From NCBI RefSeq assembly GCF_048403405.1, contig NZ_CP183129.1: a stretch of 64,000 nucleotides of DNA; one strand, written 5' to 3'. Source of the DNA: Escherichia coli (GTDB lineage Bacteria; Pseudomonadota; Gammaproteobacteria; Enterobacterales; Enterobacteriaceae). The position numbers and the translations under genes are program-made. Below are positions 12,385-18,661 of this stretch, in pieces (position 1 is the stretch's first letter; each line of letters starts with the position of its first letter). Below the pieces are notes generated by a model. That model was not told the origin of the DNA and ran no database searches. It was given only the letters and a program-made list of their open reading frames with translations.

Positions 12385-12389
12385 ACCAT

Positions 12390-12430
12390 ACGCACAGAAT
12401 GTGATGTCAGCACTCTGTGCGTCTGCTTTT
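12390..12430 (+). terminator. Intrinsic terminator after eamA
   Basis: Stem ACGCACAGA / TCTGTGCGT (12390-12422) followed by CTGCTTTT. Confidence 0.6.
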
Positions 12431-13127
12431 ATCGCGGGAAAAAGTACTTTACCTGGAACTCGAAAATATTGCTGTAAAGTAACGAATAATCCAGCGGAAT
12501 AGAGTTACTGTCCACAGCCTGGGTCTGAATTTTAAGTATGGGATCCCGTGGGCTGATCCGTAAAATACTGGCGATTTCTGGGGTAGGAAAAGTAGGGGAG
12601 AAAGTTTCAAAGGTGCCAATGATTTTGATCCCGCATTCGTTCTCAATATACGAAAATTTGGATTTTTGCATATGTGCTACGGTTAAATCAGGAAAACGTG
12701 CCACTGACATCCACGTTTCTTCTAATTGTGCTGCATTATCCTCAATGAATCGCAGTCTCTTTATGTAATAAACCTGCTCACCAGTCACTAAATTCAGCTC
12801 AGTCGCAATAGGGGGAGAAGCATCCTGCACTTCAAATTTCATAATCTGACTTCCTGCCTCCTTGCCGCTTTTATGCGCAATTTCACTGAAGCTGTTCATG
12901 TGATCAATGTGTGCAACAAAATTCTTTTTTTGAATATATGTTCCTGAACCATGCTTTCTATGAATAATTCCTTCGCCTTCCAGCAAGGATAATGCCTTAC
13001 GCAGGGTATTACGCGAAACATTATAACGAACAGCGAGTTCAGCTTCTGACGGCAACAAATCACCAACATGCCATGAATAGCCATTGATCTCGGATTTAAG
13101 TAAGCGGGCAATCTTTTGAAAAATCAC
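12429..13127 (-). CDS. GntR-family (HutC/UTRA subfamily) transcriptional regulator, divergent from the PTS operon
   Basis: 232-aa ORF with an N-terminal GntR HTH (SEAELAVRYNVSRNTLRKAL) and a UTRA-like C-terminal effector domain. Confidence 0.8.
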   Translation of the reverse strand: MIFQKIARLLKSEINGYSWHVGDLLPSEAELAVRYNVSRNTLRKALSLLEGEGIIHRKHGSGTYIQKKNFVAHIDHMNSFSEIAHKSGKEAGSQIMKFEVQDASPPIATELNLVTGEQVYYIKRLRFIEDNAAQLEETWMSVARFPDLTVAHMQKSKFSYIENECGIKIIGTFETFSPTFPTPEIASILRISPRDPILKIQTQAVDSNSIPLDYSLLYSNIFEFQVKYFFPR

Positions 13128-13325
13128 TTTTGCACCTTTTAAGAGCCATTGAAAACAAGGAGTTGAGTCCTGATTGGTTTATCGTATGGTCGAGTCGTTT
13201 AATTATCACCCTGATGTTGAACAACTTTAGTGCTGTATTACTGTGATCAATGTACCAGGACGTATAGCTACTGCGGGATATGATATTTACACAATGTAAT
13301 CTGTTATATACCAGTAAGGAAAAAT

Positions 13326-13637
13326 ATGAAAAAGATATTGTTAGTTTGCGCTGCGGGCATGTCAACCAGTATGCTGGTTAAACGTATGATTGATCATGCT
13401 AACGCTATTTCACTTGAAGTTAATATTTCCGCATTGGCGATTGCAGAGGCTAAAGGGAAAATTAAAAATAACGAAGTTGACGTTGTTTTACTTGGCCCGC
13501 AAGTTCGCTTTCAGAAACCAGAGATTGAAGCTGTTGCACAGGGGAAAATGCCTGTAGCTGTTATCGAGATGAAAGACTATGGCACCATGAACGGACAGGC
13601 AGTTCTTGAATTTGCGATGAAACTACTGCAAGAGTAA
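13326..13637 (+). CDS. PTS EIIB component, lactose/cellobiose family
   Basis: 103-aa ORF MKKILLVCAAGMSTSMLV... with the conserved catalytic Cys context of ChbB-type EIIB. Confidence 0.85.
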   Translation: MKKILLVCAAGMSTSMLVKRMIDHANAISLEVNISALAIAEAKGKIKNNEVDVVLLGPQVRFQKPEIEAVAQGKMPVAVIEMKDYGTMNGQAVLEFAMKLLQE

Positions 13638-13750
13638 GAATCTAATATTATTAAACTATTACCTGAACTAACTTTTCACACATCATAAAATGGATATGGC
13701 ATACATGCTTTATTGGGATGTATAAATATCCAGAACAACAGGTATAAAAA

Positions 13751-15467: not shown

Positions 15468-17141
15468 ATGAATATAAAGACGATTAACGTCAGCCTTTTG
15501 TCTTTTTCTATTATTACAGCATTGTTTCCGTTGAACGCGTTGGCAACAAAATTAACCATTGAGCAGCGCCTTGAACTGCTTGAAAATGAATTGTCGCAAA
15601 ATAAACAAGAGCTGAGAGCAACACAGAATGAACTGGGGGTATATAAATCCCGACTTTCGACCTTACAAAAAAGTATTACGGAAAATAAATACAAATCAGC
15701 CTCACTTGCTGAAATATCAGCGACATCTCCCGTCGCTGATAACATCAAAAATGAAAACGGTGAACAGAACTCGTCTGCCGCAGCGCATACTATAAATGGA
15801 TCGCAGCAAGTTGCCGTTATTGAAAGTAAAGGCGACAAAACCACTATCGAAAGCGTGACCCTGAAAGATATCAGTAAATATATAAAGGATGATATTGGGT
15901 TCAGCTATCAGGGGTACTTCCGCTCAGGCTGGGGTACCGGAAATCATGGCTCACCACAAACATATGCAGCGGGTTCTCTGGGACGTTTTGGTAACGAGAT
16001 GAGCGGTTGGTTTGACTTAACCTTAAATCAGCGTGTTTATAATCAGGACGGTAAAACGGCAAATGCGGTCGTTACCTATGATGGCAACGTAGGTGAGCAG
16101 TATAACGATGCCTGGTTTGGTGACAGTGCCAATGAAAATATCATGCAGTTCAGTGATATTTATCTGACAACGCGAGGTTTTTTACCCTTCGCGCCAGAGG
16201 CAGACTTCTGGGTAGGCAAACATAAACTCCCGCAATATGAGATCCAAATGCTGGACTGGAAAACCTTAACCACGGATGTCGCTGCGGGTGTGGGGATTGA
16301 AAACTGGGCACTTGGTGTAGGGCTGTTTGATATGTCCTTAAGCCGTGATGATGTCGATGTTTACTCTCGTGATTTTACGCGTACCAGTCAGATGAATACC
16401 AATTCTGTGGATGTTCGTTATCGCAATATCCCGTTATGGGATGATGCAACATTATCATTAATGGCTAAATATTCCGCACCAAATAAAACGGATCAACAAC
16501 AAGATAATGAAAATGACGACAGTTATTTTGAAATGAAAGATAGCTGGATGCTGACTTCTGTTTTACGGCAAAACCTGCAACGCGATACGTTTAATGAATT
16601 TACGTTACAGGTTGCCAATAATTCCTATGCCAGCAGTTTTGCCAGTTTCTCAGATGCCAGTAACACGATGGCGCATGGTCGCTATTACTATGGTGACCAT
16701 ACCAATGGGATCGCCTGGCGTTTAATCTCTCAGGGCGAGATGTATCTTACTGACAATATTATTATGGCTAACGCGCTTGTCTATTCTCATGGCGAAGATG
16801 TTTATAGTTATGAAAGTGGCGCTCATAGTGATTTTGACAGTATTCGCACCGTAGTAAGACCGGCCTGGATCTGGAATACATGGAATCAGACGGGGCTTGA
16901 ATTAGGCTGGTTTAAGCAACAGAACAAAACACAGCAGGGTGTAACACTAAATGAATCGGCTTATAAAACGACACTCTGGCATGCATTGAAAGTGGGTGAA
17001 AGCATTTTAGGTTCACGACCAGAAATTCGCTTCTATGGAACGTATATCAATATTCTGGATAACGAATTATCGAATTTTAAGTTTAATGAGAACAGCAAAG
17101 ACGAGTTTATGGCCGGCATCCAGGCGGAAGTCTGGTGGTAA
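15468..17141 (+). CDS. Outer-membrane carbohydrate-selective porin (LamB/ScrY/BglH family) with an N-terminal coiled-coil extension
   Basis: 557 aa; signal peptide; heptad-like segment ([28 protein letters not shown]) as in ScrY; beta-barrel with aromatic C-terminus (...AEVWW). Confidence 0.75.
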
Positions 17142-17165
17142 TCTATTTTAGTTAAGGAGTTGTGT

Positions 17166-18605
17166 ATGTCAGGATTTAAAAAAGGTTTTTTATGGGGCGG
17201 CGCGGTAGCCGCGCATCAGTTGGAAGGTGGCTGGAATGAAGGAGGAAAAGGCATCAGTATCGCTGATGTGATGACTGCTGGCGCTCACGGTGTGCCGCGT
17301 GAAGTGACAGAAGGCGTTATCGACGGACTTAATTATCCCAATCATGAAGCAATTGATTTTTATCATCGCTATAAAACAGATATTCAGTTATTTGCCGAGA
17401 TGGGATTCAAATGCTTTCGAACTTCCATTGCCTGGACACGAATCTTTCCGCAAGGTGACGAACAGGAGCCGAATGAAGAGGGTTTAAAATTTTATGATGA
17501 TCTGTTCGATGAATGCCTGAAGCAGGGAATGGAACCTGTGGTGACGCTTTCGCATTTTGAGATGCCTTATCATCTGGTGACAAAATATGGTGGCTGGCGA
17601 AACCGTAAACTGATCGACTTTTTCATCCGCTTCGCATCAACGGTCTTCACGCGCTATAAAGAAAAAGTAAAGTACTGGATGACGTTTAACGAAATCAATA
17701 ATCAGGTGAATTTCAGCGAAAGCCTGTGTCCATTTACTAATTCCGGTATCTTGTATTCGCCAGAGGAAGATATCAATGAGCGCGAACAAATAATGTACCA
17801 GGCGGTACATTACGAGTTAGTTGCCAGTGCCCTGGCAGTACAGACTGGTAAATCGATCAATCCTGAATTTAATATCGGCTGTATGATCGCCATGTGCCCC
17901 ATCTATCCTCTGACTTGTGCACCCAACGATATGATGATGGCCACGAAAGCGATGCATCGTCGTTACTGGTTTACTGATGTTCATGCGCGTGGATATTATC
18001 CGCAACATATGCTGAATTACTTTGCCAGGAAAGGATTCAACCTCGATATCACACCAGAAGATAATGCGATTCTTGCCAGAGGTTGTGTCGACTTTATCGG
18101 CTTTAGCTACTACATGTCTTTTACTACGCAATTTTCGCCAGATAACCCGCAACTGAATTATGTTGAACCACGAGATTTGGTCAGCAACCCTTATATCGAT
18201 ACATCCGAATGGGGATGGCAAATTGATCCGACAGGGCTACGTTATTCACTCAACTGGTTCTGGGATCATTTCCAGTTGCCGCTGTTTATTGTCGAAAATG
18301 GATTTGGTGCGGTTGACCAGAGACAAGCTGACGGCACGGTGAACGATCACTATCGCATTGATTACTTTGCTTCCCATATTCGGGAAATGAAAAAAGCCGT
18401 AGTCGAAGATGGTGTTGACTTAATTGGCTACACCCCATGGGGCTGTATTGACCTGGTTTCTGCCGGAACAGGGGAAATGAAAAAGCGCTACGGAATGATT
18501 TACGTCGATAAAGACAACGAAGGGAAGGGAACCCTGGAACGGATACGTAAAGCGTCGTTTTACTGGTATAGGGATCTCATCGCCAACAATGGCGAAAATA
18601 TTTGA
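17166..18605 (+). CDS. 6-phospho-beta-glucosidase, glycoside hydrolase family 1
   Basis: GH1 motifs TFNEIN (acid/base) and IVENGFG (nucleophile); N-terminus [22 protein letters not shown] typical of BglA/AscB; AAGGAG Shine-Dalgarno 6 nt before the ATG at 17166; the track began at an upstream TTG. Confidence 0.9.
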
Positions 18606-18631
18606 GACTTCAGGAAGATATTACGGAGATA

Positions 18632-18655
18632 TCAGGCTCTGTGATCAGAGCCTGA
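18632..18655. terminator. Hairpin between the GH1 gene and marB (no clear U-tract)
   Basis: Perfect 10-bp inverted repeat TCAGGCTCTG / CAGAGCCTGA with a 4-nt loop. Confidence 0.4.
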
Positions 18656-18661
18656 CAATAA

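Follow-up and report, generated by a model that had tools for sequence, protein, structure and literature searches.

Six genes between eamA and marB in an Escherichia coli genome very probably constitute the bgc (beta-glucoside/cellobiose) locus

A 64,000-nt stretch of Escherichia coli contig NZ_CP183129.1 (assembly GCF_048403405.1), referred to here as the window, carries a segment of six genes between eamA and marB that is almost certainly the bgc (beta-glucoside/cellobiose) locus, composed of the regulator gene bgcR and, transcribed divergently from it, bgcE-bgcF-bgcI-bgcH-bgcA. The locus is not new, having been described already, and its substrates have been reported from experiment. The bgc operon is said to go back to a 2009 paper by Neelakanta, Sankar and Schnetz in Appl Environ Microbiol. 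In the window, the order of the genes is that of an enzyme IIB (EIIB), an enzyme IIC (EIIC) and an enzyme IIA (EIIA) of the phosphotransferase system (PTS), followed by a porin and a hydrolase, with a divergent regulator, and both the gene set and its order agree with those of bgc. According to a passage in PMC3585215, BgcR positively regulates a bgc operon of five genes, whose products include the phospho-beta-glucosidase BgcA and, as subunits of the PTS, BgcE, BgcF and BgcI. The gene set given in that passage comprises IIB, IIC and IIA components, a porin, a phospho-beta-glucosidase and the GntR-type BgcR, with the labels of IIA and IIC swapped relative to ours. The same passage reports growth on cellobiose, arbutin and salicin via bgc and refers to a low-temperature phenotype.

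A second line of evidence comes from strain CFT073, in which c1955-c1960 have been listed as a six-gene "PTS system, cellobiose specific" cluster that is absent from K-12 (PMC2831201). In the CFT073 genome, the interval from marB to eamA holds these six genes too, and their products are 97.1-99.0% identical to those of the window (98.7% for BgcR). Judged from position and content, the old tags c1955-c1960 would correspond to these six CFT073 genes. Compared with the bgc locus of septicemic and uropathogenic E. coli, the window shows the same gene content, order and orientation at the site occupied in CFT073, and we regard it as an allele of bgc.

An earlier interpretation of this DNA, made by a model from the letters alone (the sequence-only reading), had proposed that six genes intervene between eamA and marB. 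The open reading frame (ORF) list of the window has six intact ORFs in this interval, and the coordinates that had been given are correct (Table 1). In E. coli TUM14771, a genome that is 100% identical, RefSeq annotates the same six genes with the same start codons as those noted here, placing the start of the hydrolase gene at ATG 17166 (17160 in the ORF list) and that of the EIIA gene at 15101 (15095 in the ORF list). The names assigned by RefSeq to the six genes are generic, such as "PTS sugar transporter subunit IIC" or "carbohydrate porin". The short spacer that had been stated for K-12 is indeed found in a K-12-type genome, where 30 bp separate the eamA stop from the marB stop. Divergence from the K-12 allele starts at ~12378, within the final three codons of eamA and not at 12385, and extends to 18661. 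The boundary between presence and absence falls within the eamA coding sequence, and the EamA C-terminus reads ...KVRG before the stop codon in the window and in bgc-positive genomes, versus ...KVGS in K-12-type genomes (positions 2477-2487 of L002).

Table 1. Features of the eamA-marB interval and its flanks (positions are those of the window)
Feature	Position	Strand	Description
eamA, left flank	ends 12384		NF008523, 630 bits
Variable segment, left boundary	12378..12384	+	Inside the last codons of eamA; direct comparison with the K-12-type genome L002
Left hairpin	12387..12425		Between convergent eamA and bgcR; perfect 9-bp core stem ACGCACAGA/TCTGTGCGT, 12390-12398 / 12414-12422
bgcR	12429..13127	-	GntR/HutC-type regulator, 232 aa, GTG start, divergent from the operon
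Divergent regulatory region	13128..13325		198 bp, 36% GC
Inverted repeat	13197-13201 / 13218-13222		GTTTA / TGAAC, conserved across genera
CRP-like site	13242-13257		TGTGATCAATGTACCA; left half TGTGA at 13242-13246
Candidate -10	13279-13284		TATGAT
bgcE	13326..13637	+	PTS EIIB, lactose/cellobiose family, 103 aa
bgcE-bgcF spacer	13638..13750	+	AT-rich, 113 nt, no recognised element
bgcF	13751..15073	+	PTS EIIC permease, lactose/cellobiose family (TC 4.A.3), 440 aa
bgcI	15101..15412	+	PTS EIIA, lactose/cellobiose family, 103 aa; RefSeq start
bgcH	15468..17141	+	Sugar-specific outer-membrane porin, 557 aa
bgcA	17166..18605	+	Glycoside hydrolase family 1 (GH1) 6-phospho-beta-glucosidase, 479 aa
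Right hairpin	18632..18655		Between convergent bgcA and marB; 10-bp stem 18632-18641 / 18646-18655, 4-nt loop
Variable segment, right boundary	18661/18662		
marB, right flank	18662-18880	-	NF007508

The self-contained pathway that had been proposed, consisting of a regulator, EIIB-EIIC-EIIA, a porin and a GH1 hydrolase, is backed by domain searches in each of its family assignments. BgcE matches Pfam PTS_IIB (PF02302, E 6e-19) as well as TIGR00853 and is 44% identical to ChbB, and its phosphorylatable Cys8 aligns with ChbB Cys10. BgcI matches PTS_IIA (PF02255, E 1e-31), is 49% identical to ChbA and shares with it the LVHAQDHLM motif that contains the phospho-His. Both the N-terminal Cys of a lactose/cellobiose-family EIIB and the conserved His of the corresponding EIIA are therefore present. 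BgcF scores 337.7 bits with the TIGR00410 lacE subfamily model (cut-off 236), as is expected of a LacE/CelB-type permease, and among PDB structures it is related only to the cellobiose-specific IIC 3QNQ (E 4e-57). The claim of an EIIB-EIIC-EIIA set of the lactose/cellobiose PTS family thus finds support in Pfam matches and in an EIIC score above the curated cut-off. The spacer between bgcE and bgcF was considered as a regulatory RNA and rejected, with no Rfam match at E<=1 and an unremarkable fold (z -2.2); the EIIB-EIIC gap in other genera runs from ~30 to ~320 nt.

BgcH has a LamB domain (PF02264) at residues 147-557 (E 1e-81) and a Sugarporin_N domain (PF11471) at residues 30-56 (E 2e-6). 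A signal peptide of ~26 aa, placed by eye, is followed by a coiled-coil extension with a clean a/d heptad register at residues ~28-72, a linker and a LamB-type barrel. Coiled-coil extension plus LamB barrel is the typical architecture of ScrY, the sucrose porin of enterics, and BgcH likewise combines a Sugarporin_N extension, a heptad register and a LamB barrel; judged by these sequence features, it would belong to the LamB/ScrY sugar porins. It is also 53% identical to K-12 BglH over its full length, in keeping with the ScrY/BglH-like porin with N-terminal coiled coil of the sequence-only reading. A single-sequence search of the PDB with BgcH gave no match at E<=0.001, ScrY and LamB entries included, and the protein is therefore distant from the solved porins. 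The hydrolase BgcA scores 1034.6 bits with NF007154 (cut-off 624), is 60% identical to BglA, 51% to BglB and 49% to AscB, and has as its best PDB relatives the phospho-beta-glucosidases 3PN8 and 4F79 (E ~1e-240). GH1 glutamate motifs occur at Glu176 (NEI) and Glu377 (ENG), the positions expected of the acid/base and the nucleophile. With both glutamates and membership in the subfamily, BgcA is predicted to be the GH1 6-phospho-beta-glucosidase that had been proposed. The EIIC and GH1 assignments, on which the earlier proposal hinged, are both above curated cut-offs. Protein clustering at 90% identity places the porin together with the GH1 enzyme in one cluster of 14022 members, which looks like a database artefact, presumably from a fused or read-through ORF call.

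In Pfam searches, BgcR shows a GntR domain at residues 4-65 (PF00392, E 1e-18) and a UTRA domain at residues 87-218 (PF07702, E 9e-30), that is, the N-terminal winged helix and C-terminal UTRA domain of the HutC subfamily of GntR regulators, as had been stated for the divergent regulator. Its NCBIfam matches are to the HutC subfamily, all of them under equivalog cut-offs, and its RefSeq label is GntR family regulator. The region between bgcR and bgcE was aligned with its orthologues, giving 12 intergenic regions from ten genera: E. coli (two alleles), E. albertii, Citrobacter, Salmonella diarizonae, Kluyvera, Raoultella, Klebsiella, Enterobacter, Cedecea, Ewingella and Erwinia. The TGTGA half of the CRP-like site is invariant in all 12. 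Also invariant are alignment positions G80/T81/A84 and T101/A104/C105, where the repeat reads GTT(T/C)A ... TGAAC (13197-13222), making this inverted repeat a candidate operator for BgcR. The predicted CRP site would be centred near -41.5, as reckoned from the candidate -10, which is a class II arrangement. Between the window and CFT073 the 198 bp differ at eight positions, among them 13264, located between the CRP-like site and the predicted -10, where the window has A (GTATAGC) and CFT073 has G (GTGTAGC).

The gene content and order, family membership, residue conservation, site and distribution determined here can be combined with the substrates, low-temperature phenotype and activation by BgcR known from the literature into a likely route for beta-glucoside use, in which the promoter, the CRP and operator positions and the terminators are predictions. 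Cellobiose, arbutin and salicin would enter the periplasm through BgcH, a LamB/ScrY-family channel with a periplasmic coiled-coil extension. The phosphate would be relayed from phosphoenolpyruvate via enzyme I and HPr to the His of BgcI, then to Cys8 of BgcE and finally to the sugar on BgcF during uptake, and BgcA would cleave the 6-phospho-beta-glucoside into glucose-6-phosphate and glucose or the aglycone. BgcR, the reported activator, would act on the divergent regulatory region, with its UTRA domain probably sensing a sugar phosphate. The cyclic AMP-CRP complex is probably also required, through the class-II-like site ~41.5 bp upstream of the predicted start. CRP dependence of bgc was reportedly described by Neelakanta, Sankar and Schnetz in 2009, and the conserved CRP-like half-site is consistent with it.

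Four beta-glucoside operons of E. coli, namely bgc, chb, asc and bgl, are listed in PMC4488073, all of them cryptic. The K-12 bgl operon (bglGFBH) resembles bgc in being a cryptic aryl-beta-glucoside PTS with a LamB-family porin, BglH, and a GH1 enzyme, BglB, but relies on a single glucose-family enzyme II, BglF, and on the BglG antiterminator, where bgc has split Lac-family enzymes II and a GntR/HutC regulator. The K-12 chb operon (chbBCARFG) shares the split Lac-family PTS in the order B, C, A, but it encodes the AraC-type ChbR, the glycoside hydrolase family 4 (GH4) enzyme ChbF and the deacetylase ChbG with no porin in the operon, whereas bgc has a GntR regulator, a GH1 enzyme and a porin. 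In comparisons with K-12 BglF and AscF (both glucose-family enzymes II), BglG, AscG, ChbR and ChbF, the bgc proteins show no similarity. This comparison of paralogues thus depicts bgc as a chb-like split PTS joined to a bgl-like porin and hydrolase, with a regulator of another family.

The bgc locus is accessory, being absent from K-12 and found in ~46% of complete E. coli genomes (2493 of 5426, with at least 80% of the segment covered at 95-100% DNA identity and a median of one place per genome), a count that rests on DNA coverage and not on ORF intactness in each genome. Its accessory status had been claimed on the comparison with K-12; with neither K-12 nor most E. coli carrying the operon, it is not a core locus. 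The segment sits at the eamA-marB site in all genomes among the matches listed. A K-12-type empty junction was matched full-length in 2480 of the 5426 genomes, and examples among the remainder include partial derivatives of the segment and empty sites with diverged flanks. Some genomes that lack the segment have flanks 99.5% identical to those of the window. Although bgc is reportedly prevalent mainly in phylogroup B2, according to Neelakanta et al., the positive strains include non-uropathogenic serotypes and sources, namely O111:H8 and bovine, porcine and soil isolates. The segment has undergone secondary decay, independently, in NZ_AP027822.1 (L003), ETEC4075 (L041), CP131_Sichuan (H62) and LY180 (H69). 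The changes are a deletion that starts in mid-eamA and reaches the 3' end of bgcA, another that extends from shortly after bgcE into marA and thereby removes marB, an IS3 insertion within the porin gene and, in LY180, the loss of bgcA. Five matches to the segment lie on records classed as plasmids, which could be misassigned replicons or genuine transfers.

Orthologous loci were sought by scanning species-representative genomes with the porin. The complete six-gene form is present in E. albertii, a Citrobacter species, Salmonella enterica subsp. diarizonae and Erwinia psidii. Rearranged forms, with bgcA upstream and in the opposite orientation, occur in Klebsiella, Raoultella, Enterobacter, Cedecea, Kluyvera, Buttiauxella and Ewingella; in Klebsiella, Enterobacter, Cedecea, Ewingella and Buttiauxella the bgcA orthologue lies ~1.2-1.5 kb upstream of bgcR, and several rearranged loci have no EIIA match between EIIC and the porin. 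Presence of bgc in E. albertii, reportedly noted by Neelakanta et al. in 2009, is verified here. In that species the comparison covers the marB side, the contig breaking off within bgcR. There marB-marA-marR lie directly next to the locus, and bgcA, the hairpin and marB are joined just as they are in E. coli. At the DNA level the bgc genes of the two species are 80-84% identical, and marB, marA and marR 84-90%. For five of the six bgc genes, protein identity (85-95%) exceeds DNA identity (95% versus 83% for bgcF), an indication that purifying selection acts on most of the locus; in bgcE alone the protein and DNA values are equal, at 84%.

Two alternatives concern what the locus does. Its main substrate might be another Lac-family PTS sugar, such as chitobiose or a lactose-type disaccharide, in which case the locus would be a paralogue of chb or lac. 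The best NCBIfam matches of EIIA and EIIB are chitobiose or lactose components, and EIIC is 37% identical to ChbC. We nevertheless consider this most improbable: BgcA, while passing the 6-phospho-beta-glucosidase cut-off, is far under that for 6-phospho-beta-galactosidases (250 versus 610), the locus holds no homologue of the GH4 enzyme ChbF or the deacetylase ChbG, the nearest paralogue of the porin is the beta-glucoside porin BglH, and growth on cellobiose, arbutin and salicin is reported in the passage cited (PMC3585215). It is also possible that the physiological substrate is some other plant or host beta-glucoside and none of these three. Alternatively, the locus could be a silent, decaying relic whose genes are intact but effectively never expressed in this strain. 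Such a state would agree with the description of bgc as cryptic and in need of an activating mutation (PMC4488073), with the AT-rich regulatory region and with a distribution in which about half of the genomes lack the locus and others show partial deletions or the IS3 insertion. This appears quite unlikely given that all six ORFs are full length both here and in CFT073, that 2493 genomes retain at least 80% of the segment at 95-100% DNA identity, that five of the six genes are better conserved with E. albertii as protein than as DNA, and that the promoter motifs are conserved across ten genera. Several observations weigh against the identification itself, or against the regulation outlined above. 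The equation with bgc leans on the description in a passage of a citing paper, on the CFT073 cluster and on the correspondence of bgc with c1955-c1960, which the original 2009 paper reportedly gives, and no Bgc name occurs among the members of the 90% protein clusters, which have generic names only. Neither EIIC nor EIIB/EIIA scores high enough to reach the equivalog cut-offs that NCBIfam sets for components of cellobiose or chitobiose systems (434 for cellobiose IIC and 760 for chitobiose IIC in the case of BgcF), and therefore sequence alone does not fix the substrate. To this extent the sequence-only reading was right to call the substrate not deducible, but the statement has been overtaken by the growth on beta-glucosides reported in the passage of PMC3585215. 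The CRP-like site has two mismatches, and the bare pattern does not exceed chance (26 found in the window, 29 expected), so that its support comes from conservation across genera and from the reported CRP dependence of bgc, and not from pattern enrichment.

A further alternative concerns origin. By stating that six genes intervene, the sequence-only reading was correct about the genes, but it also implied an insertion, and a loss in the K-12 lineage is at least as likely because E. albertii shares the junction and there is no mobility signature. A recent genomic island inserted into a K-12-like eamA-marB spacer, that is, a gain in this lineage rather than a loss in K-12, would account for the lower GC content of the segment (42.7%, versus 47.5% for the window), its patchy distribution in E. 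coli (46%), the different genomic contexts of the orthologous loci in Citrobacter and Salmonella diarizonae, and the well-formed terminator hairpin that the empty K-12 site has of its own. However, the annotation contains no integrase, insertion sequence (IS) element or tRNA in the segment, and a scan of the segment against Rfam at E<=1 gave no match and no RNA gene in the region. Nor did a search for direct or inverted repeats reveal any on either side of the segment, the repeat families being short pairs at chance level with the exception of the left hairpin. The marks of a mobile genomic island, namely an integrase or transposase, a tRNA or attachment site and flanking direct repeats, are thus missing from the segment. 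Moreover, the bgcA-hairpin-marB junction is the same in E. albertii, where the DNA divergence of the locus (80-84% identity) is like that of the adjacent marB (84%), and several E. coli genomes have deleted the segment independently. A recent gain is on this evidence rather unlikely, and ancient acquisition followed by loss and recombination of alleles fits better. The empty site of K-12 plausibly reflects loss, and the simplest reading would be that bgc was acquired before E. coli and E. albertii split, was lost in lineages including that of K-12, and had its alleles shuffled by recombination. We tentatively put forward a more specific history, in which bgc has occupied this site since before the split, a single, ancient and precise loss created the empty allele, and recombination brought the two alleles to a ratio of ~50:50, hinting at balancing or niche-dependent selection. 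The niches hinted at are plant or soil and low temperature, as against the gut.

The two hairpins that had been said to bracket the segment, at 12390-12430 and 18632-18655, both exist and are much more stable than shuffled versions of the sequence. The left hairpin folds with -17.4 kcal/mol on the + strand and -21.4 kcal/mol on the - strand (z -2.9 and -4.1 versus shuffles) and is followed on the + strand by the T-run CTGCTTTTAT; it is likely a bidirectional terminator. Folding energies of the right hairpin are -18.8 and -20.2 kcal/mol (z -3.8 and -4.8), and it is kept in E. albertii with one substitution. A terminator role is predicted for both. A consensus promoter and terminator scan returned counts at chance level and listed neither hairpin nor the likely bgc promoter; the left hairpin is absent from the simple terminator scan because its loop exceeds 8 nt. 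The hairpin within the 30-bp spacer of K-12 is different from the right hairpin, but the 3' arms of the two are loosely alike, and if they are homologous the right boundary of the segment moves ~25 bp to the left.

Linking these genes to bgc provides substrates and a regulator for a locus present in ~2500 complete E. coli genomes; it has little import beyond annotation and opens no long-standing question. The minor additions made here are the prevalence of ~46%, with non-uropathogenic strains included, the E. albertii junction and the regulatory motifs shared across genera. The near 50:50 presence or absence of bgc beside the marRAB resistance regulon could mark lineages for typing, and such a marker could serve studies of non-host lifestyles of E. 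coli, such as growth at low temperature or on plant-derived carbon.

Elsewhere in the window, positions 9674-9887 (+) give a full-length match (281.9 bits) to Rfam STnc560, an Hfq-binding small RNA that we take to be MgrR. This is the only Rfam family match in the 64 kb, and it adjoins mgtS/mgtT and dgcZ. A 5.4-kb gene annotated as "ECSE_1600 family autotransporter" occupies ~41270-46690 (NZ_CP128875.1 710159-715579) and adjoins hipBA. Also in the window are the lsr operon for autoinducer-2, a cluster of oxidoreductase genes accompanied by a LysR regulator, and the fimbrial operon ydeQ/ydeR/ydeS-usher-chaperone-fimA, in which all genes are annotated as complete.

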